Virus record (IMG/VR): IMGVR_UViG_3300031453_000005
Span: 1 to 42,479 of that record
Strand: one strand, 5' to 3'
DNA: 42,479 nt
Origin: a virus
Lineage: Duplodnaviria; Caudoviricetes
In this document: in pieces, positions 1,425 through 14,291 of the stretch
Layout of the letters: each line of letters begins with the position of its first letter
How positions within the stretch are numbered: the stretch's first letter is position 1
Notes under the pieces: model-generated
What the model was told of the DNA's origin: nothing
The model's database searches: none
The model's input: the letters and a program-made list of their open reading frames with translations, nothing else
Made by a program: the position numbers and the translations under genes

Positions 1425-2738
1425 TCAGGAACCCTTGGTGCCGACCGGTGAGGCCGTCCCATTCGAGACCTCCACGATGCCGAGCGCCCCGAAGGTCGCC
1501 CGGACCGTGTCGGCCACATAGCTTGGGGTCAAGTGGGCATAGTGCCGCTCGGTAATTCGCGTGCCCTCATGGCCAAGCTGCGCTGCGATTACCGACATGG
1601 GAGTGCCAGCCAGAGCAAGGCGGCTTGCGTAGGTGTGTCGAAGGATGTGAAACGATATGGCGGGCTCGATGCGGGCGGCGGCGCACGCCTCGCGGAGCGG
1701 TCGGAACTGATGCGACTTACCCCAGGCGTCGCCGTCCTCGCGCACGAAGAGTAGGTCGGTCCTGGGGCGGCCGACTGCGGCGTGTTCGAAGAAGGCACGG
1801 CCTTCATCTGTCAGGTAGATGTGTCGCGGCTTGCCGCTCTTGCTTACTGCGACGGTGACGTTGCCCACCTCGTTGTTGACGTCCAGCGCGCGGAGGCGGG
1901 TGATCTCGCCGTAGCGCATCCCGGTCAGCAAGCCGGCAACAACGATCTTCCGCAGCGCCGGATCACAGGCGTTGACCAACCTCACGACCTCCGCGTCCGA
2001 GAGATGCCGTATGCGCGGCGAATCCACCTCGCGGTAGGGTTTGACAAGCTCCCAGGCCGCCTTCGAGTGAACGCGGCCCTCCTGGTGAGCTAGATTCAAC
2101 GCCGCCTTCAGCAGCGACAGAATGCGGTTGACGGTCGCTCGGCGTCGCCGGATCCCATCCGCGTCGGATGGGTCGAGCACCCGCCGCCTTGAACCGGCTG
2201 GCGCGGAGCGGCGCGTTCGCAGACGAGGCGCCGCCTCCGCAAGATCGTCACGCCAGGCAATAATTCGACCGCGCGTGAGGCGATCGAGCCGAACAGTCCC
2301 CAGCTGGCTTTCAAGGTGAGCCTTGATCGTGTTTTCGGTGTCTTTGACGCGCTTGCCCCCACGACGCCGGTAGGCACGGACGTAGTCCGCTAGGGCATCG
2401 CTCACAGTGAAGGGCGCTCGGGTGGCGTGTGACGGATCAATCCCGGCAGCAGCATGGTGCTGATTGCTGGCTTCCGCTCGGGCCTTGGCTTCGGCTTGGC
2501 GGAAGTCGAGGTAAGTTACTCCATCCGCCTTGATGACATCGTCGGCTCGGCCCAGCGATCGGTCGCGATAGCGTCCCTCGACCATGGTACGGACAACCCA
2601 GGTTCCACCGCTCGCTCCGCGTCTATACCCGAGGGACACGCCCGCACCGATGCTGCGGAAGTAAGGGTCGCGACGCACCTCGAGCCGTTCGCGGGCGGTA
2701 CGGGTCGTTATCGGCTGGTCTGCTGTCTGTCTCGGCAT
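1425..2738 (-). CDS. int: Tyrosine recombinase/integrase (element 1)
   Basis: Catalytic motifs TGMRYGE, SKSGK, HILRH, LGH, HYAH; N-terminal arm-binding domain (LGYRRG..GTWVVR); start taken at MPRQT. Confidence 0.95.
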   Translation of the reverse strand: MPRQTADQPITTRTARERLEVRRDPYFRSIGAGVSLGYRRGASGGTWVVRTMVEGRYRDRSLGRADDVIKADGVTYLDFRQAEAKARAEASNQHHAAAGIDPSHATRAPFTVSDALADYVRAYRRRGGKRVKDTENTIKAHLESQLGTVRLDRLTRGRIIAWRDDLAEAAPRLRTRRSAPAGSRRRVLDPSDADGIRRRRATVNRILSLLKAALNLAHQEGRVHSKAAWELVKPYREVDSPRIRHLSDAEVVRLVNACDPALRKIVVAGLLTGMRYGEITRLRALDVNNEVGNVTVAVSKSGKPRHIYLTDEGRAFFEHAAVGRPRTDLLFVREDGDAWGKSHQFRPLREACAAARIEPAISFHILRHTYASRLALAGTPMSVIAAQLGHEGTRITERHYAHLTPSYVADTVRATFGALGIVEVSNGTASPVGTKGS

Positions 2739-2981: not shown

Positions 2982-4013
2982 TCAAACCTTGTTCATGATT
3001 CTGCCCCGGCCAATCGACTTTATCGCAGATCGGGCAAGCCTCTCCTGGTCGGCTGCAAGTGTGTAGCGCTGAACCTCTGCGAGCGTCTTGTGCCCCGTCA
3101 CGGCCGCGATCTGGTGCGCTGTGCAACCGGCCTCGGCCATGCGTCGTGCAGCAGCCTTGCGGAGGCCGTGCGGGCTAAGCCCGTCTGGTAGGCCGGACGC
3201 CGTTACCCACTTCGCGAACCGCATGTAGAAGCCGTTGGGTGTAAATGGCGCGCCGCGTTCGGTCATCAGGAACGTCAGCCGATCGGTCTCGAGGGCTATC
3301 AGGTCCGCCAGCTCGGCATGCAGCGGGATCAGCAGCCGCGCCCCTGTTTTCTGCTGGCGGACCTCGATCGCGTCCCCTCGAATATGCTGCCGACCCATCC
3401 GAACCACGTCGCTGCGGCGCTGCCCGGTGTAGAGCATGAGAGCCAGCGCCAGTCGCGGTCGCGTTCCGGCAGCCCAGCGCGCCTCGAAAGCCGCGATGTC
3501 CTCCTCACTCCATGTCTCCGCACCCTCGCCGTGTTCTTTGAGCCGGTCCACATCACGCGTTGGGTCAGTTTGGATTAGGCCTTGTCGGATCGCATGCTTC
3601 ATCAGCGCACGCAGGGTCCGCAGGAAGTGGTTTGCCGCAGCCGGTGTCGCTGACCGGGCCTCCATCATCTCGCGCACCTTTTGTGCTTGGAGATGCGCGA
3701 CCCGCTTGATGCCGTGCGCATGCACCATGTCATCAATAATCCGACGATACACTCGCTGCGTACTTGCTGCGAGTTGACGGTATGCGGAGCTGGCAAGATA
3801 GCTGCGGGACACGGCTTCGATTGAGCCCTCGACCACGCGATCAGTCTTTGCGATTGGCTCGGACGCTGCCAGGGCAGCGGCATAAGCTTCGTGGAACGAA
3901 GGATCATCCTGCGCCGGCAGCGTAATCCGCTTGCAACCCGGCCGGCGGAAATACAGGCGCGGTCGCCCGTAGCGGTCTTTGAAGGCCTGCACATATTTCA
4001 GACGCACGATCAC
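2982..4013 (-). CDS. int: Prophage tyrosine integrase
   Basis: YTGQRRSD, QQKTG, HGLRK, GH, QRY motifs; N-terminal KDRYGRPRLYFRR; GTG start just after the xis stop. Confidence 0.95.
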   Translation of the reverse strand: MIVRLKYVQAFKDRYGRPRLYFRRPGCKRITLPAQDDPSFHEAYAAALAASEPIAKTDRVVEGSIEAVSRSYLASSAYRQLAASTQRVYRRIIDDMVHAHGIKRVAHLQAQKVREMMEARSATPAAANHFLRTLRALMKHAIRQGLIQTDPTRDVDRLKEHGEGAETWSEEDIAAFEARWAAGTRPRLALALMLYTGQRRSDVVRMGRQHIRGDAIEVRQQKTGARLLIPLHAELADLIALETDRLTFLMTERGAPFTPNGFYMRFAKWVTASGLPDGLSPHGLRKAAARRMAEAGCTAHQIAAVTGHKTLAEVQRYTLAADQERLARSAIKSIGRGRIMNKV

Positions 4014-4014
4014 G

Positions 4015-4251
4015 TCAGCCCCAATCGTTCTCCAGCGTTGATGCTGCCCCTCTGGCCCCCTGTCGCGCAATCCATGCGTCGAGATCAGCCCGGCGCCAGC
4101 CGATGCGCTTCACCGTGAGCCGGATCGGGGGCACGGCCGGCGCGACTTGCTCTCGGAATGTCGTCGGCGAGAGGGACAGGTAGGCAGCCGCCCACTCTTC
4201 GTGCAGCACGGCTGGCCAGCCGGGGAGGACGGGGCGGCCGTCGTTAGGCAT
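4015..4251 (-). CDS. AlpA/excisionase-like DNA-binding protein
   Basis: AAAYLSLSPTTF...PIRL..KRIGWRRADLDAWI; directly upstream of int. Confidence 0.85.
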   Translation of the reverse strand: MPNDGRPVLPGWPAVLHEEWAAAYLSLSPTTFREQVAPAVPPIRLTVKRIGWRRADLDAWIARQGARGAASTLENDWG

Positions 4252-5282: not shown

Positions 5283-5797
5283 TTACCTCCCGCCACGGCA
5301 GCAAGCCGGGCAGCCGCCAGCAGCGCCAGCGCACCGAGCAACACAGTCCAGCTTGCTGGCTCTGACGTCGCCACCACCATATTGCCAGGCGTGCTCGCCG
5401 CGATTTCGCTCAGAGCCGGCGCAGCCTGATGGCTTGAGCCGATCGGCACCAACACACCGGGGAACCCAGCGAGCGCGCTGCCGGGCACGCCTGGTGCAAA
5501 GCCCCCGCCGCCACTGGGATAGCCGCCGGCACCGGCATAGGGAGCGCCATATCCGCCCATGCCGCCATACGGTGCATCATACCCGCCGCCGTAGGGCAGC
5601 GGAGGAAGCAGCGGCAACAATCCGCCGACGATCAGCCCCGCCTTGAGGCACACGGGCGGCAGGTTTTCGACCAGCACTCGTGGCGCATGCCAGTGCGGGT
5701 GACCGATTGCCCAGCGGTGCCAGCGGTGGATTGTGTTGACTGATACCCAGCGCCAGCAGCGTGTGAGTGGGTCCAGGATGTAGCGGCCGGTCATCAC
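5279..5797 (-). CDS. Gly/Tyr/Pro-rich protein with a PEP-CTERM-like C-terminus
   Basis: YGG repeats; ends TSEPASWTVLLGALALLAAARL. Confidence 0.6.
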   Translation of the reverse strand: MMTGRYILDPLTRCWRWVSVNTIHRWHRWAIGHPHWHAPRVLVENLPPVCLKAGLIVGGLLPLLPPLPYGGGYDAPYGGMGGYGAPYAGAGGYPSGGGGFAPGVPGSALAGFPGVLVPIGSSHQAAPALSEIAASTPGNMVVATSEPASWTVLLGALALLAAARLAAVAGGK

Positions 5798-8700
5798 TCG
5801 GCCGCTTCCATTCCCGGAGCGTCGAGTATGTCGAACAGCGTCGGCGTCGCGCGCTTCTCGTCCTCGGCCCGGCAGTAGGCGACGGCGTCGCGCCAGTAGG
5901 ACCGGCTTAGCTCGGTGCCGAGACCCTGGCGACCTAGCTTCACTGCCCGCAGCGGCACGGTGCCGATGCCGGCAAACGGGTCATAGACGACGTCCCCGGG
6001 ATTGGAGAACTGGACGATTAGCCGATCGACGATGTCGAATTGCAGCGGGCACAGATGCACCTCGCGCCCCTTCTGCACCTGCTCTCCGTTTAGCGTCCGC
6101 ATGCGCGCCACGTCGGTCCAAACGTCAGGGTGCGGCGAGTGCGGCGGGAACAGCATGAACGTCGCCGGTAGGCGCTGGAGCGCGTCCAGGTCCTCGGAAA
6201 TCCCAAGGTGCTCGCGGTAGTCGTAGACCCGATCGGTCGACCGCGCGCGCCACCACTTGAACATCTGCTCGTGCGGCAGGGAGCGCAGATCGTCGCCGGA
6301 CAGCAACCGATCCCCCGACGATCGCGCATAGCCATGGGCATCGATCTGCCAGGCCGCGCGCGAGTAGCCCGTGCCAGGCGCCGGTCGCTTCCAATTGGTG
6401 CGCTTGTCGAACGGTGCTGTGGTGTCGTCGTCCAGGAAGCAGAGCGGCTTCTCCTTCACGACGCGATCATCCGCATAGCCAGAGCTCGCATCGGTCGGCG
6501 GGCGGCGGAGCAGCAGCAGGTATTCCGGCACGCCGCACCCCATGCGCGACCCGTCCTTGCACTGCTCCGACCAGCCGAGCCGGTAAGTCTGGTTGTTCTC
6601 GCGCACAACGTCGGTCGTGATCGTCTTCATCCCCAGCAGCGCGAAGCCGTGCCGGCGATAATGCTCAATCGCCTCGCAGTGGAACGGATGCAGGGTTTGG
6701 AACCCCAGGCCACTCAGGCCGCCGGGCATGATCCGGTCCTTGACATGCACAGCCATGACCCGGCCGGGATGCAGCACCCGGAGCAGGTTCGGCGTCAGGT
6801 AGTCCATCTGCCGCCAGAAATGGTCGTTGTCGTCTGTGTGGCCGAAATCGCAGTTGCCGCTGATCGAGATCACGCCGTTGCGACGCACAACAAGCGTTCC
6901 GTTCGGGACCTTGGCGCACCCGATCATGCCAGAATATGCAAGGAGATCGGGCGCCCGCCTGATTTCGGGAAACACCTGACTGCGGCCGATCCGGACGACG
7001 TTGCCTCGAATGGCCGTGCCCCAGCCCGTCAGAAAAGCAATGTGTTGGAAGTCGTCTCGCAGCTTCGGACTGACTGAAGCGTAGTCGAACCCTCGGGCGC
7101 CACCGTCGCCCTTCATCATCGTGTCGCGCAGGATGAGGAGGAGCGTCCCGTCCAGTTCTTTGACCCAGGCCGGAATGGACTTGTGGTAGGAGCCTGATCC
7201 GAACTCTGAAACCAGCAAGCGCGCCAATGCCCGATTGTGAGCGATGATCGCTTTAGCGTTGATCTGGACAGTCAGCCCGATCCTGTTGAACAGGGCGCAG
7301 ATTTCATCACGATACTTGGGGTGGACCAGCGACTGCGAAATCGTGATCCGCCCGGCATGCGGACCTCCCAACGCATCGCAATAGCCCTCTGACAGATACC
7401 AACCCGCCAGTTCCATGAAGTCTTCGACGGCGATGCTTCCAAGTTCCTTTCCAACAGGCCCGCGAGCACCACGAGCGGCCGGCAGAACTTCGATGCGCTT
7501 GGGGTTCTTGCCGATCGGCAAATACCGGATGGCGTTGACCATTCGGTATTTGCGGGAGACGAAATTGTCGGCGATCTCCGACGCCCGCACTTTGCCATAG
7601 CGCCTGTCCTTCCGCCCGGTCTCCTGGTTTCCCACACGGCGATCCACGAACATGCCGTGATCCGGGGTGACAAGAAGGTCGAAGTTGTTGCTGTTAACGA
7701 AGTGGAGCATGTCTCCTGAGTAGTGCTCCCACACCGTCGCGATCGGGTGCTGCCACTCTAGGGACAAGAGGCTCTGATCCACGGTCGCAAGCTTGTCTAT
7801 TAACCCGACCTCGCCGAAGCTGATCCAACCACGATCCGACAAGACCTCCGTGCTCTCATCGTAGCAGTAGTTCGGCGTGTACTCGTATTGGGTGGCGAAC
7901 GGAATCGAGGTGACGATCAGCCCGACGCTGGCCTCATCCATCGCAGCCGTCTCGATCACAGTGTCGTTGTTGATCAAGCGCCAGGCGTCTCCCGCGGCCT
8001 CCTCGCGCGGTACGTGCATCTCGCGCTGGAGCGACTGCGCCATCGCGAGCCGGTTCAGCCCGTATTCGCGGACGATCCCGCGCATGATCTCGACCTGTTC
8101 GTCATGCCGGGCCCACTTCGTCTCGATCGCCCGACGAACCTCCCGCTCGGCCTCGCTGTAGATGAAGTCGACCCGCACCGGCTGCGTCTGCCCGAAGCGG
8201 TGTACACGGTGGCACGCCTGGATCATGTCGTAAAATTTAAAGCCGATCCCGAGGAAGATCGACCATGCGCAATGCCGCTGGAAGTTGCATCCGACGCCGG
8301 TGACTGAGGGTTTGCCGGCGAGCTCGGCGAACAGCCCGTCCGAAAAGCCGATGATATTGGCCTCGCGCGTCTCGAGGTCCTGCGACCCATAGACCGACAT
8401 GACGCCAGGGATCGCCGCTTCGATTGCCCGGCGCTCGTCCTCGAGATCGTGCCAGAGGATGCGATGCGCGCCGGGGTTCTCGTCCCGCAACTCGATCATT
8501 TTCGCAATGCGGGTTCCCAGGGTGGCCCGCTTCTCGGCCGCGGCATCCGATACGCCGATCGCTGCATTACGGAACATGCGGCCCTGGCCGTCGCGCTCTG
8601 CGCCGGCTTTCGAGTGATCGCTCGGCACCTCGTGCCAGCGCACGTCGAGCGGCGGCAGATCATATCCCTCGTCGGAATGTCCGAGATCGGATGGCCTGGT

Positions 8701-9417
8701 CAGGAACAGCGCCCAGGATGCAACCCAACACCAGAACTCGCGCTCCTTGTGGGGATGCAGGGTCAGCTTGTCGGCGTTGCTGCTGTTGCGTTTGAAGAAG
8801 CGCGTTTTCGCCTCGCCGACCTCCATCACGCCAAGGAATGCGGCATAGCTGAGCAGCTCGATGTATTCGTTCGGGCTGGGTGTCGCCGTGGCAACGAAGC
8901 GGAACCGCGTGCCCTCGAACTGGCGCATCAGCTCGCGGAACGTCTTGCTACCGCCGAACCCGCGCAGAATTGCGGCCTCGTCCAGACTGACCGCATCGAA
9001 CAGAGAGACATCGATCTTGCCCTCGCGCACGCTCTCATAGTTGGTAAGGTAGATGCCCGGGCCGGCGATCTCGGCCGTGGTGCGGATGAACGGAAGGTCG
9101 AGATCGAGCATGCCATCGTCGCGGGTGAACTCCTGGCGCACACCGAGCGGCAGGACGATCAGCCCATACTTGATCTCGCCGCGTTCGATGAGCTGTCGCA
9201 TCGCCTCAATCTGCATGAGCGTCTTACCCATGCCGAAGCCGGCGAATAGCGCGGCGCGACCCTTGCGCAGCATCCAGGACACCGCGTCGCGCTGGTGCGG
9301 CTTGAGGACGGGATGCAGGTCTTCCGGCATTATGGCTGCGATGCCGGCCTCGCCAAACTGCGCCACCTTGGCCCTGAGGAAGTCCTCGTAGCTGGGCTCG
9401 TGCACGGTGATGCTCAT
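5794..9417 (-). CDS. SNF2-type helicase fused to an N4/N6 DNA methyltransferase, intein-containing
   Basis: GFGMGKT, LDEAA, TATP, QACHRVHRFGQ helicase motifs; MTase VTSIPF and YDPFAGIGT. Confidence 0.92.
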   Translation of the reverse strand: MSITVHEPSYEDFLRAKVAQFGEAGIAAIMPEDLHPVLKPHQRDAVSWMLRKGRAALFAGFGMGKTLMQIEAMRQLIERGEIKYGLIVLPLGVRQEFTRDDGMLDLDLPFIRTTAEIAGPGIYLTNYESVREGKIDVSLFDAVSLDEAAILRGFGGSKTFRELMRQFEGTRFRFVATATPSPNEYIELLSYAAFLGVMEVGEAKTRFFKRNSSNADKLTLHPHKEREFWCWVASWALFLTRPSDLGHSDEGYDLPPLDVRWHEVPSDHSKAGAERDGQGRMFRNAAIGVSDAAAEKRATLGTRIAKMIELRDENPGAHRILWHDLEDERRAIEAAIPGVMSVYGSQDLETREANIIGFSDGLFAELAGKPSVTGVGCNFQRHCAWSIFLGIGFKFYDMIQACHRVHRFGQTQPVRVDFIYSEAEREVRRAIETKWARHDEQVEIMRGIVREYGLNRLAMAQSLQREMHVPREEAAGDAWRLINNDTVIETAAMDEASVGLIVTSIPFATQYEYTPNYCYDESTEVLSDRGWISFGEVGLIDKLATVDQSLLSLEWQHPIATVWEHYSGDMLHFVNSNNFDLLVTPDHGMFVDRRVGNQETGRKDRRYGKVRASEIADNFVSRKYRMVNAIRYLPIGKNPKRIEVLPAARGARGPVGKELGSIAVEDFMELAGWYLSEGYCDALGGPHAGRITISQSLVHPKYRDEICALFNRIGLTVQINAKAIIAHNRALARLLVSEFGSGSYHKSIPAWVKELDGTLLLILRDTMMKGDGGARGFDYASVSPKLRDDFQHIAFLTGWGTAIRGNVVRIGRSQVFPEIRRAPDLLAYSGMIGCAKVPNGTLVVRRNGVISISGNCDFGHTDDNDHFWRQMDYLTPNLLRVLHPGRVMAVHVKDRIMPGGLSGLGFQTLHPFHCEAIEHYRRHGFALLGMKTITTDVVRENNQTYRLGWSEQCKDGSRMGCGVPEYLLLLRRPPTDASSGYADDRVVKEKPLCFLDDDTTAPFDKRTNWKRPAPGTGYSRAAWQIDAHGYARSSGDRLLSGDDLRSLPHEQMFKWWRARSTDRVYDYREHLGISEDLDALQRLPATFMLFPPHSPHPDVWTDVARMRTLNGEQVQKGREVHLCPLQFDIVDRLIVQFSNPGDVVYDPFAGIGTVPLRAVKLGRQGLGTELSRSYWRDAVAYCRAEDEKRATPTLFDILDAPGMEAAE
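6853..7866 (-). mobile_element. Intein (338 aa) with a LAGLIDADG homing endonuclease
   Basis: Starts CYDESTEVL, block B VTPDH, LAGWYLSEG and MMKGDG motifs, ends VRRNG..SGN, +1 residue Cys. Confidence 0.92.
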
Positions 9418-9575
9418 GGCGCACCTCCGCTCGCCGGCAAGCACCGCCCCTCGGCCTCCAATTGCGGCGGCTCACCCTCGTCGATGCAGGTCCAGTAGCA
9501 TTCGCGATTGCCGCGGCACCAGTCGGGATCGGGGCAGCCGGGCGGGTGGCGGCGATGGTCGGCGGGGATGATCAT
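9414..9575 (-). CDS. Small Cys-rich protein (53 aa, not in the ORF track)
   Basis: MIIPADHRRHPPGCPDPDWCRGNRECYWTC...; ATGA overlaps at both ends fill the gap exactly. Confidence 0.6.
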   Translation of the reverse strand: MIIPADHRRHPPGCPDPDWCRGNRECYWTCIDEGEPPQLEAEGRCLPASGGAP

Positions 9576-11267: not shown

Positions 11268-11700
11268 TCATCACCCGCTCGCAGTCGAACATGAAGTCCC
11301 GGCAGAACTCGTTGCGCGCCATTTCGATCGCGTCTTCCAGCCAGCCGGACATGTAGCGATCTGGGTCATTGCCGCCGCGCCCACTATGGTAGTCACGCGG
11401 GTCGGCTTTCTCGGTCTTGTCCGTCTCGATGCGCTGCATGTTCCAGTCCAGCACAGCAACGAAGCCGTCGTCTCCCACGCCGCCCAGCAGAGTGCCGAGC
11501 TGTTCCAGCCGCTCCTGTGCCGCCTCGTCCTCGCCGCTCGGGTCTGCCGCCTGCTGCTTATCCAGTTTGGCGCAGAGCGCGGCGGCGGCGGTCTGCGGGC
11601 AGATGCGCTGCTTGACGGCGGCAACGACGCGGTCGCCGATCGTGGCAGGGGGATTGCGGAGGGCCTGCTTGAACAACGTCTGGACGATCAAAGCGCGCAC
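11248..11700 (-). CDS. Hypothetical phage protein
   Basis: Operon-packed ORF. Confidence 0.6.
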   Translation of the reverse strand: MRALIVQTLFKQALRNPPATIGDRVVAAVKQRICPQTAAAALCAKLDKQQAADPSGEDEAAQERLEQLGTLLGGVGDDGFVAVLDWNMQRIETDKTEKADPRDYHSGRGGNDPDRYMSGWLEDAIEMARNEFCRDFMFDCERVMNGAYFE

Positions 11701-11996: not shown

Positions 11997-12220
11997 GCGG
12001 ACACCTGCAAGCCGGCCGGCGCCGGTATCTCAGTGCCGAAGTGCTCGCCAGCAAGCCTGGCCAGCGTCATAACGCGGACGCTGATGCTACCGCGAGCGGT
12101 ATCTTGGCCGGACGTGAGCGCCAGCTTCGTCGCCTCCGCGACCAGGCTCCTTACAAGCAGCGCCTCAAGGCTGGGCGCCGCATCTGGCTGGTGCGCGATG
12201 GTGATGTTCTGCGGGCTCAT
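11993..12220 (-). CDS. Hypothetical phage protein
   Basis: ATGA-coupled at both ends. Confidence 0.6.
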   Translation of the reverse strand: MSPQNITIAHQPDAAPSLEALLVRSLVAEATKLALTSGQDTARGSISVRVMTLARLAGEHFGTEIPAPAGLQVSA

Positions 12221-12948
12221 GCCGAAACTCCTGCATCGGCGCGCAACGATGCGAGCGTGGTTTCATTGTCCGCATAAAAATTTGGGACAGGCTGGCCTGG
12301 ACGAGAGACCAGATAGATGAGCGTGCCGGCCGCCTCTGACCCGACTTTGCGCTCAAGCTCCTTTCCGGCCTCGCCAGCCGTCACCACCGCCCATCCGGCC
12401 CTACAATGAGACGTGCCGCAGGGGTGGTGCCAGGAAGACATATCCAGTCCGCCACCAGCCTCGATGGCAGCGAGAATTGCGGCGTCAAGGTTGGGAACGA
12501 TAGGAATATCGCTCAGGGAGGCATCGCTCAGGACGGCACCGCTCAGGTCGGCACCGCGCAGGTCGGCACTGCTCAGGTCGGCACCGCTTAAGACGGCACT
12601 GCTCAGGGCGGCACCGCGCAGGGAGGCGTCTCTCAGGTCGGCGTCGCTCAGGTCGGCGTAGCGCAGGTCGGCACCGCGCAGGGAGGCGTCGCTCAGGTCG
12701 GCGTAGCGCAGGTCGGCATCGCGCAGGGAGGCGTCTCTCAGGTCGGCGTCGCTCAGGTCGGCGTAGCGCAGGTCGGCACCGCGCAGGGAGGCGTCGCTTA
12801 AGACGGCACCGCTGTCAAATGTCCAATTCACTGCTGCGCCAATTTTCAAGCGCCAGTCTAGCCAAGTTGGAATTTCAGATATGAACTGCACCTCCCCCGT
12901 CCAACGGTTATTGACGGGGTAGCTCTCGGTCTGCGGCGCCTCGGCCAT
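12217..12948 (-). CDS. Pentapeptide-repeat protein, first gene of the leftward operon
   Basis: About 19 A(D/S/V)L(R/S)x repeats; C-terminal WHHPCGTSHCRAGW; GGAGG RBS. Confidence 0.9.
   Translation of the reverse strand: MAEAPQTESYPVNNRWTGEVQFISEIPTWLDWRLKIGAAVNWTFDSGAVLSDASLRGADLRYADLSDADLRDASLRDADLRYADLSDASLRGADLRYADLSDADLRDASLRGAALSSAVLSGADLSSADLRGADLSGAVLSDASLSDIPIVPNLDAAILAAIEAGGGLDMSSWHHPCGTSHCRAGWAVVTAGEAGKELERKVGSEAAGTLIYLVSRPGQPVPNFYADNETTLASLRADAGVSA
12523..12815 (-). repeat. 15-bp-period tandem repeat encoding the pentapeptides
   Basis: Recurrent units such as gcgcaggtcggc and gctcaggtcggc. Confidence 0.9.
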
Positions 12949-12986
12949 CTCGGTCCTCCAGGGCGCCGGGGTGGCGCTGATGGAGC

Positions 12987-13030
12987 ACACTAAGCAATGC
13001 CTAGCACTCCTGTCAATAGGCATTGCCTAG
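12987..13030 (-). promoter_or_regulatory. PL-like promoter with two repressor operators
   Basis: Minus strand TTGACA-N18-TAGTGT; operators CTAAGCAATGCCTAG (12990-13004) and ATAGGCATTGCCTAG (13016-13030). Confidence 0.8.
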
Positions 13031-13065
13031 CAGACGATCGGGATTGTTCGAGCTACCTTGCGTTC

Positions 13066-13368
13066 ATGGATGATCCGCCGGAGAGCGACGCGGCCAATGG
13101 GCTTAACTCGGTTCAGAATGACCTTGCTGCTGCTGCTGAGTTTTTCCAGAAAGCCAAGGCTGCGGCTGCCTGTCCCATTTGCAATAATCCGACTTGGGAA
13201 ATGCTGTATGCGGGCGAAGACCTTGATCTACGGCCAGCCCTGTCGATGCTAGCTGTGAGCTCTTCGCAAAAGCACCTAGTGCCGCCGCAAATGCCGTTAG
13301 TCGGGCTCGTCTGCACGAACTGCGCTTACGTCCGGCTTCACATCAGGCAGAAGGTGCTTGGTCAGTGA
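13066..13368 (+). CDS. Zn-ribbon protein (moron gene 1)
   Basis: CPIC...CTNC pairs; lower GC. Confidence 0.75.
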   Translation: MDDPPESDAANGLNSVQNDLAAAAEFFQKAKAAAACPICNNPTWEMLYAGEDLDLRPALSMLAVSSSQKHLVPPQMPLVGLVCTNCAYVRLHIRQKVLGQ

Positions 13369-13721
13369 GCAGCAGCGGCCAATATCATCGACCGGTTCCA
13401 CCACTGACCACGGTGGCAGGGTCGGATTTTGTTGCCGGAAGTGGACCGCCACCCCATGATCCGGGAATGGAAGCGCGCGTCACAGCGATTGAGAGCCGTC
13501 TAGACCGCATCGAGGTCAAGATCGATAAATTTGACGAGCGACTGCGATCCGTCGAAACCGGCATATCTGCCCTGGATGCAAAGATGACGCTGCTAGCTGA
13601 GAAGATTGTCAGCAAGCTTCCAAGTTGGTGGCAGATGCCGACCGCAGCAGTGGGGACGATTGCCGCTCTTGGGGCTTTGGTAGCGCTCGCTCAGCGGTTG
13701 CATATATTCGGAGCACAATAG
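13365..13721 (+). CDS. Coiled-coil protein with a C-terminal TM helix (moron gene 2; alternative start 13467)
   Basis: MEARVTAIESRLDRIEVKIDK heptads then hydrophobic helix; GTGA overlap with the previous gene. Confidence 0.75.
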   Translation: MSSSGQYHRPVPPLTTVAGSDFVAGSGPPPHDPGMEARVTAIESRLDRIEVKIDKFDERLRSVETGISALDAKMTLLAEKIVSKLPSWWQMPTAAVGTIAALGALVALAQRLHIFGAQ

Positions 13722-13754
13722 CGAAAGCCAGAAGTTTTCCCTAATCTCGATATG

Positions 13755-13806
13755 TAGACAGGCATTCCGTCCTAAGGCATGTTCTTGAGACGTTCACGTC
13801 TGGAGG
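13755..13806 (+). promoter_or_regulatory. Putative SOS promoter with an alphaproteobacterial LexA box, plus RBS
   Basis: TAGACA-N17-CATGTT; GTTCTTGAGACGTTC (13781-13795) = GTTC-N7-GTTC; GGAGG at 13802. Confidence 0.7.
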
Positions 13807-13813
13807 CAGCGTC

Positions 13814-14056
13814 TTGGGCCAACTATGCAGATTTCCGGCGAGCAGCGGCCAACGTCTCTGCCGTGGTGAGCAATGCGTTCCGCTCGTCAAGAGACAACAA
13901 AGTCCAAGCGCGGCGGATCAAGAGAAGCTGCTGCTCGACCGATTGCTGAACCTCGTAGACACCCTTGAAGCCAGAGCGCGGGACGACGGAGCCAAACGGT
14001 CGGCTCAGGTCTTCTCCGCAGAGTTCGTCAAGAGTCACGTCGTAGAGAGCAGATAA
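13814..14056 (+). CDS. Candidate SOS-induced antirepressor, antisense-overlapping cI
   Basis: TTG start 7 nt after GGAGG, downstream of the LexA box; function inferred. Confidence 0.45.
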   Translation: MGQLCRFPASSGQRLCRGEQCVPLVKRQQSPSAADQEKLLLDRLLNLVDTLEARARDDGAKRSAQVFSAEFVKSHVVESR

Positions 14057-14212
14057 CTCAAGCAGCTTGTCGATTGCAGGCTTACTACGCCCCAACTCCC
14101 ACTGAGCTACGGAAGCCGGGGCGATGTTGAAGTGCTTCGCGACTGCGGCTTGCGACAGTCTAGGCTGCGTCGCATTCCGTAGTCGTCGCAACCGATCGGG
14201 CCAGGCTTCCAT
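13823..14212 (-). CDS. cI: CI-like XRE repressor without an S24 peptidase domain
   Basis: RLRRLR..LSQAAVAKHFNIAPASVAQWELGRSKP HTH; divergent from cro; 129 aa. Confidence 0.9.
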   Translation of the reverse strand: MEAWPDRLRRLRNATQPRLSQAAVAKHFNIAPASVAQWELGRSKPAIDKLLELSALYDVTLDELCGEDLSRPFGSVVPRSGFKGVYEVQQSVEQQLLLIRRAWTLLSLDERNALLTTAETLAAARRKSA

Positions 14213-14215
14213 CCA

Positions 14216-14291
14216 ATAAGCATCGCCTACCGCGAACGGTAGCGCGCCTAGTGTTTGCCTATTGACGCGCACGCTAAGCAACGCCTAGTGT
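14216..14291 (+). promoter_or_regulatory. OR region: three operators and the PR promoter
   Basis: ATAAGCATCGCCTAC, CTAGTGTTTGCCTAT, CTAAGCAACGCCTAG; TTGACG-N18-TAGTGT. Confidence 0.8.

Follow-up and report, generated by a model that had tools for sequence, protein, structure and literature searches.

A candidate LexA-controlled antirepressor gene nested antisense within the cI repressor gene of a temperate alphaproteobacterial phage

Introduction

The closest described system is AimX/AimC(-AimL) of the Bacillus phi106-family arbitrium phages, in which a LexA site precedes a small ORF convergent on the gene of a short repressor. According to the available text of that work, the AimX protein and not the antisense RNA acts, the heterodimer blocks DNA binding, models put AimX on the C-terminal domain of AimC, and AimX candidates are 29-80 aa long and sometimes overlap aimC (10.1101/2025.11.23.689978). 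A structure of the complex is listed as PDB 9sf2. The Gifsy antirepressors GfoA, GftA and GfhA are described as LexA-controlled in the accessible part of PMC3121763, where 186 Tum and N15 are cited alongside. LexA-gated antirepressor logic is already known from AimX and Gifsy, and in convergent form from AimX.

Translated ORFs embedded antisense in other genes are described, in the portions of the sources available, for olg1/olg2 of Pseudomonas aeruginosa (PMC8850804) and olg1/olg2 of phage Fc02 (PMC9936078), with a review in PMC7457138. An antirepressor almost fully nested in a repressor gene was not found in the literature searched, and the supplementary table of the AimX study may list longer overlaps. 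Many prophages carry repressors unable to self-cleave and no annotated antirepressor.

Results

The phage and its immunity switch

The window analysed here is a whole virus record, a 42.5-kb stretch of DNA with two integrases, replication genes, terminase, portal and head genes, and it is a temperate alphaproteobacterial phage. The named relatives of the repressor HTH come from Gluconobacter and Acetobacter, which makes a host among the Acetobacteraceae (Alphaproteobacteria) likely. The predicted switch is of the lambdoid type, with cI and cro on opposite strands (Table 1). By their position, the operator-like palindromes are putative CI operators; the SOS promoter described below contains none of them. 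Positions 11440-11472 were matched by a contig of run X3, in which an identical 28-nt repeat, resembling those of CRISPR type I-E, lies on either side. This match is a putative CRISPR spacer against the window phage or a relative.

Table 1. Features of the window
Feature	Position	Strand	Remarks
Tandem tyrosine integrases, two	1425-2876 and 2982-4070	-	
1216-aa protein	5794-9444	-	PHROG matches helicase and methyltransferase-like
Pentapeptide-repeat protein	12217-13023	-	heads leftward early operon; Pfam E 1e-31
Left operator-like palindromes TAGGC-NN-TGCYTA	12991-13003, 13017-13029		ahead of leftward early genes
123-aa Cys-rich ORF and 118-aa coiled-coil ORF with hydrophobic end	12997-13721	+	between left operators and cI
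Predicted sigma-70 promoter	13755..13783	+	-35 TAGACA (13755-13760), 17-nt spacer, -10 CATGTT (13778-13783)
LexA box GTTC-N7-GTTC	13781..13795	+	overlaps -10; sole exact copy in window
Shine-Dalgarno GGAGG	13802..13806	+	7 nt ahead of TTG; no listed difference in X2 record 3
80-codon ORF, candidate antirepressor	13814..14056	+	TTG 13814-13816, stop TAA 14054-14056; antisense in cI
cI-type repressor, 129 aa from ATG	14212..13823	-	XRE HTH, flexible linker, two-helix C-terminal domain
Right operator-like palindromes TAGGC-NN-TGCYTA	14217-14229, 14249-14261 (2 mismatches), 14275-14287		between cI and cro
cro-like gene, 72 aa	14298..14516	+	Pfam YdaS/P22_Cro, phrog_35; strand same as SOS transcript

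A Pfam scan of the 129-aa cI product returned HTH_3 only (E 8e-10), and the S24 autopeptidase was absent. The AlphaFold2 model consisted of HTH helices at 4-65, a low-confidence stretch at 70-87 and helices at 84-103 and 108-128. Gene callers lengthen cI upstream to 149-152 aa, across the operator region (14213-14281). Translation more likely starts at the ATG at 14212; the extended N-terminus seems similar to the homologs P0004 and P0007 probably because the operator DNA is conserved.

At the level of sequence, the locus has what is expected of control by a LexA-regulated antirepressor: the repressor lacks a RecA-stimulated S24 autopeptidase, and the promoter ahead of a small ORF carries a putative LexA operator. 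Among the window ORFs scanned with Pfam and PHROG, which include part of the small ones, none matched an S24 or antirepressor family. Hence, with neither S24 in cI nor such a match in the scanned ORFs, SOS induction needs another input.

The predicted SOS promoter and LexA box

The predicted promoter aims into the 3' end of cI; its -35/-10 pair was read by eye and scores below a strict consensus scan. The GTTC-N7-GTTC sequence overlapping the -10 hexamer is presumably the alphaproteobacterial LexA box. A GTTC consensus is named in the available text of PMC6473078. Shuffled windows held a mean of 1.25 exact boxes; because the single copy present equals chance expectation, the weight of the box comes from its position and conservation.

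Conservation was seen in related metagenomic contigs. Record 3 of run X2 (a rock metagenome) matched 13400-13837 with 11 differences, and none of the 10 that are listed falls in the hexamers, the half-sites, the RBS, the TTG or the first 8 codons. Past 13837 the sequence diverges into a different cI tail, and the frame stays open over the 30 letters (10 codons) shown. Record 4 of the same run matched only 13736-13784, with 4 differences, one of them located; it preserves the two GTTC half-sites but not the 7 nt between them, and an AGGA RBS and an ATG come next. A functional LexA operator would be expected to preserve its half-sites while the spacer is free to vary. The promoter differences listed in related contigs lie in the spacer or upstream only. 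In record 4, the same promoter and LexA box precede a different gene, whose ATG lies 13 nt after the box.

The same TAGACA-N17-CATGTTC-N7-GTTC layout was found at phage locus L010. There, the SOS-type promoter lies upstream of an 81-aa ORF (2237-2482, -) and a gene at 1626-2234 (-), which was assigned as SRAP-like by reading its translation. A box (exact or with one mismatch) was found within 200 nt of the stop at none of nine loci (five distinct proteins) of the 212-213-aa repressor relatives; database relatives of this length class carry Pfam S24.

A scan found no terminator-like sites between 13795 and cro. The 123-aa and 118-aa genes upstream could add basal antisense transcription, because they are aimed at the SOS promoter and no terminator-like site was found. 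A related contig keeps both of them (97-98% identity) beside a different sequence at the position of cI.

The nested ORF

The preliminary description of this DNA had reported GGAGG, 7 nt and a TTG directly after a LexA box, opening an 80-aa ORF (MGQLCRFP...) almost wholly opposite the C-terminal half of cI. All these elements are present as stated, the box lies just ahead of the GGAGG and TTG, and 234 of the 243 nt (96%) overlap cI, opposite its residues 53-129. The span given for the ORF, 13802..14056, proved right at its end, whereas 13802 belongs to the RBS and the start codon is at 13814.

The codons of the ORF and of cI are exactly in register, ORF codon 4 (CTA) being the complement of the cI stop, and residues 1-3 are encoded outside cI. 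Since the start codon lies outside cI, the ORF could be knocked out without touching the repressor. Folding of the RNA at 13790-13860 was less stable than that of shuffles (z +1.75). In the AlphaFold2 model of the product, which is weak (overall pLDDT 65), a helix at 33-57 was the most confident part, with pLDDT of 73-82 over residues 31-50. Searches of Pfam, PHROG, Atlas and viral folds gave no family or fold match, and the codon usage was at the low end of the phage genes (mean log RSCU -0.02). A 56-aa ATG ORF at 13779-13949 was ruled out as the SOS gene: because its start sits inside the -10/LexA box, it cannot be on the SOS transcript.

Recurrence of the layout

Viral contigs were scanned for the promoter plus box; 120 of about 170 loci were listed (92 distinct strings, most of them apparently chance matches; 40 held at most 641 bases). 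At two of the loci listed, L031 and L126/L144, a repressor gene has its end 25 and 37 nt beyond the box. The former encodes a 164-aa HTH repressor without an S24 match and a divergent cro-like gene; its 76-aa ORF is in register, starts 3 codons past the cI stop and is 96% nested, with a weak RBS. This DNA is also present in NZ_OW485608.1 (Rhodovastum atsumiense plasmid RHOApg, a named cultured-strain record), for which the PLSDB table, an incomplete one, has no gene at the ORF. L126/L144 encodes a 145-151-aa repressor with a weak HTH match and likewise a divergent cro-like gene, and its 77-aa ORF is in register, starts 6 codons past the cI stop and is 92% nested. The L126 ORF also begins with M-G-E. 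The repressors of both loci are S24-less and dissimilar to the window cI.

In all three prophages, the ORF starts 16-19 nt after the LexA box. Homology among the three ORFs was not detectable by hhalign (probability 0.7% and 0.1%): an amphipathic stretch of L126/L144 aligned to residues 38-52 of the window ORF, not significantly, and the L031 ORF gave no alignment to it. Judged by their sequences, the three are analogous layouts and not one protein family. In L144, a 127-aa ORF of tandem 17-residue repeats lies right after the cro-like gene (about 8130-8510, +); the repeats presumably resemble NUMOD3 repeats.

Further searches covered other collections. No LexA box was present at four distant short HTH loci (L014, L015, L016 and L158). 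A narrow pattern of box plus cI tail matched in 10 of the 401 class-level genomes searched, and inspection by eye recognised a convergent repressor in none of these. Homolog DNA was sought in viral contigs, which gave nothing or long-type cIs only, in metagenomes, which gave two identical copies of the window phage, and in genome contigs, which gave one long-type cI. No close homolog of cI with a short C-terminal domain was found in family-level samples of 391-401 genomes, and searches of GenBank phages gave partial or distant matches only.

Open antisense frames and chance

The preliminary description had cautioned that open antisense frames are common, and this was confirmed. The antisense in-register frame was open for at least 76 codons from the stop in 10 of the 35 phage genes of at least 78 codons in the window; in-register antisense frames were also open in 9/19 and 7/11 long ORFs of the two other prophage regions, and a long cI without a LexA box had such a frame open over 172 codons. 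Synonymous recoding of the window cI left the antisense frame open in 13%. Frame openness was rejected as evidence for a gene, such frames being too common in these phages. With open frames in a quarter to two thirds of genes, the argument rests on a start at that short distance past the box, in register, three times.

Possible selection on the ORF residues

A phmmer search of 1.84 billion proteins returned a single match to the ORF product, P0005 (98 aa, E 8e-5, 41% identity), and a profile search with the ORF returned P0005 only. This protein starts at the same position as the ORF (M-G-E-L), three codons outside cI, and its residues are those expected from the antisense frame of another cI homolog. 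Since the middle base of each codon is common to both frames, part of this identity arises automatically. The null for the comparison was synonymous recoding of the window cI.

Against this null, the identity to P0005 was at expectation over ORF residues 9-37 (8/29 vs 7.8) and 65-80 (6/16 vs 5.3), as well as beyond the stop of the window ORF (9/18 vs 8.2, that is, about 50% from cI constraint alone). It was above expectation over residues 38-62 (15/25 vs 9.7, P 6e-4) and 5-8 (3/4 vs 0.9), and a sliding scan gave a corrected P of 0.024 to 0.0006 with a peak at 47-69, an excess that partly hinges on two alignment gaps and that a shared recombined tract would resemble.

A hold-out test was performed with the cI proteins P0004, P0007, P0008 and P0010, aligned without gaps and anchored on the stop; P0009 was left out, being nearly identical to P0008. 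Opposite ORF residues 38-56, the residue stayed encodable in 21 of 48 distinct substitutions against 10.2 expected (P 3e-4), under a BLOSUM null in which exchanges among E, Q, K, D and N, which likewise preserve the shared middle base, may be given too little weight, and with homologs that are mutually related. The control segment 9-37 (7/39 vs 5.9) and residues 57-61 (4/18 vs 3.9) were near expectation, and the tail opposite residues 5-8 gave 3/4 against 0.5. Taken singly, three homologs had an excess at 38-56 (P 0.012, 0.0002 and 0.012), whereas P0010 alone had none (4/14 vs 3.0). As P0004, P0005 and P0007-P0010 are protein sequences only, the tests concern encodability and not boxes, starts or stops. 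Opposite L44, L47 and L51 of the ORF, cI alternates between Q, K, E and D, each of which forces a hydrophobic antisense residue, and the differing tail of P0004 still permits L-C-R-F-P in the ORF frame.

The central helix and the N-terminus of the nested ORF look constrained. It had been proposed earlier that repressor and antagonist, encoded on opposite strands of the same DNA, are forced to co-evolve, with antisense-frame conservation in cI homologs suggested as a check. The check gave an excess at 38-56 in three of the four homologs and none in P0010. The claim of forced co-evolution stands in part: the excess lies mostly opposite the flexible linker of cI, and no extra constraint was seen opposite its last helices.

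Discussion

Proposed mechanism

We proposed that the 80-codon ORF is probably a LexA-repressed gene for an AimX/SinI-like antirepressor of the non-cleavable CI that would bind its C-terminal domain, a reading held with moderate confidence. Production of the protein and its antagonism of CI are suggested by the analogy with AimX/AimC and by the lack of another inducer among the scanned genes. The earlier reading of the ORF as an SOS antirepressor gained partial support, from a LexA-type promoter aimed into a non-cleavable cI, a nested ORF whose central helix and N-terminus look constrained, and a layout that recurs in two other prophages.

In the lysogen, host LexA would block the SOS promoter. 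DNA damage would remove LexA, and a transcript antisense through cI would be made and translated. The amphipathic helix at about 38-56 may take, within the CI dimer, the position of the partner's C-terminal domain, by analogy with AimX/AimC and SinI/SinR. CI would then dissociate from its operators, and expression of cro and the early genes would begin. Convergent transcription may add to the effect. The two proteins likely share the DNA at low cost, because the conserved helix mostly overlies the flexible linker of cI.

The similarity of the ORF product to the CI C-terminal domain was not significant (hhalign probability 0.06%, E 0.75). A pseudo-palindrome making the ORF a self-mimic of the first C-terminal helix of CI was considered and rejected as not exceptional. 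The helix pairs look alike by eye in all three prophages, and at a half-window of 6 a centre within the C-terminal domain ranks among the top two in each, the ranking shifting at a half-window of 8. The best scores of L031 and L144 are reached by 4/13 and 15/28 gene blocks, the best centre in the window (residues 6-18) lies outside the ORF, recoded cIs give much of the score, and the self-antisense similarity of cI is no higher than that of other genes. The likeness of the helix pairs is a consequence of the genetic code acting on (E/Q/K)n-(L)n motifs.

Alternative explanations

The promoter could also act through RNA, in the manner of an inverted lambda PRE: antisense RNA or polymerase collision would silence cI, transcription would maybe read into cro, and translation of the ORF would only sustain elongation. 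We consider this unlikely. The promoter and box are indeed the best-conserved parts, the scan for terminator-like sites found none on the way to cro, which is on the same strand, and the ORFs of the three prophages share a layout without detectable sequence similarity. However, constraint on specific ORF residues at 38-56 would not be predicted, and in phi106 and phiW23 an antisense transcript without AimX protein had no effect, according to the available text (10.1101/2025.11.23.689978). Moreover, halted cI synthesis would leave the existing CI in place and induction would be slow.

It is quite improbable that the ORF encodes an SOS-induced protein with another role, such as a CI protease adaptor acting via its N-terminal motif, which may resemble ClpX-binding motifs, or a protein with a host target (LexA, cell division). 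The first 8 codons are kept where the rest of cI is swapped, the different tail of P0004 leaves the N-terminal motif possible, and the M-G-E start is shared by L126, all of which would suit such a role. Yet the N-terminal conservation may only mirror the translation start region and the RKSA tail of cI, and the longer of the apparently constrained segments is an amphipathic helix of the kind found in dimer-decoy antirepressors. A shadow ORF, kept open by codon bias, never translated and resembling P0005 only through cI, is very unlikely. The commonness of open antisense frames, the low codon usage score, the lack of family, Atlas or fold matches and the half-identity to P0005 beyond the window stop would agree with it. 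It is opposed by the RBS and start placed alike past the LexA box and in register in three prophages, by the start of P0005 at the same position outside cI, and by the apparent excess of constraint opposite a variable linker.

Implications

Tentatively, and at slightly less than an even chance, antirepressor genes that are codon-for-codon antisense to the repressor gene are in repeated use among alphaproteobacterial prophages whose repressors cannot be cleaved. If the antirepressor reading is true, one DNA stretch would encode a protein and its direct inhibitor, a natural sense/antisense-encoded interacting pair. A swap of the cI allele would then carry the matching antirepressor along, and immunity and induction would stay paired. 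Such genes would form a class missed by annotation, which could be found by looking 25-40 nt past the stop of cI for a LexA box accompanied by an in-register antisense gene. If functional, a gene of which about 95% is nested in that of its own target would be, for bacteria, a rare example of antisense coding with full overlap, and one that can be tested.

Comparison with known systems

Like the Gifsy, 186 Tum and N15 systems, as far as the accessible part of PMC3121763 describes them, the locus would set a LexA-repressed small protein against a non-cleaved repressor. The olg1/olg2 cases are not described, in the available portions of their reports, as direct antagonists of the opposite-strand protein. 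SinI-SinR of Bacillus subtilis, as described in the AimX study, resembles the locus in that a small helical antagonist is paired with an XRE HTH repressor whose oligomerisation domain is short and helical, and PDB 1b0n (SinI-SinR) appeared weakly (E 0.05). However, sinI and sinR are separate chromosomal genes, and SinI mimics the oligomerisation domain of SinR, whereas the window ORF has no significant similarity to that of CI.

The locus and the AimX system both have a LexA site that precedes a small ORF, a short HTH repressor gene towards which this ORF converges and the product of which is non-cleavable and has a helical C-terminal domain, and a divergent cro-like gene. It differs in its alphaproteobacterial LexA box, in the lack of demonstrated sequence similarity and in having no arbitrium genes among the scanned window ORFs; upstream of the window ORF lie the Cys-rich and coiled-coil ORFs, which have no AimR-like family match, and not an aimR-aimP pair. 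Hence, the window ORF would work like AimX but is not an AimX. In phi106, aimX overlaps aimC by 30 bp according to the text available, whereas the window ORF lies almost entirely inside cI and in register with it. What appears to be new here is this near-complete in-register nesting, together with an apparently constrained helix placed mostly over the repressor linker.
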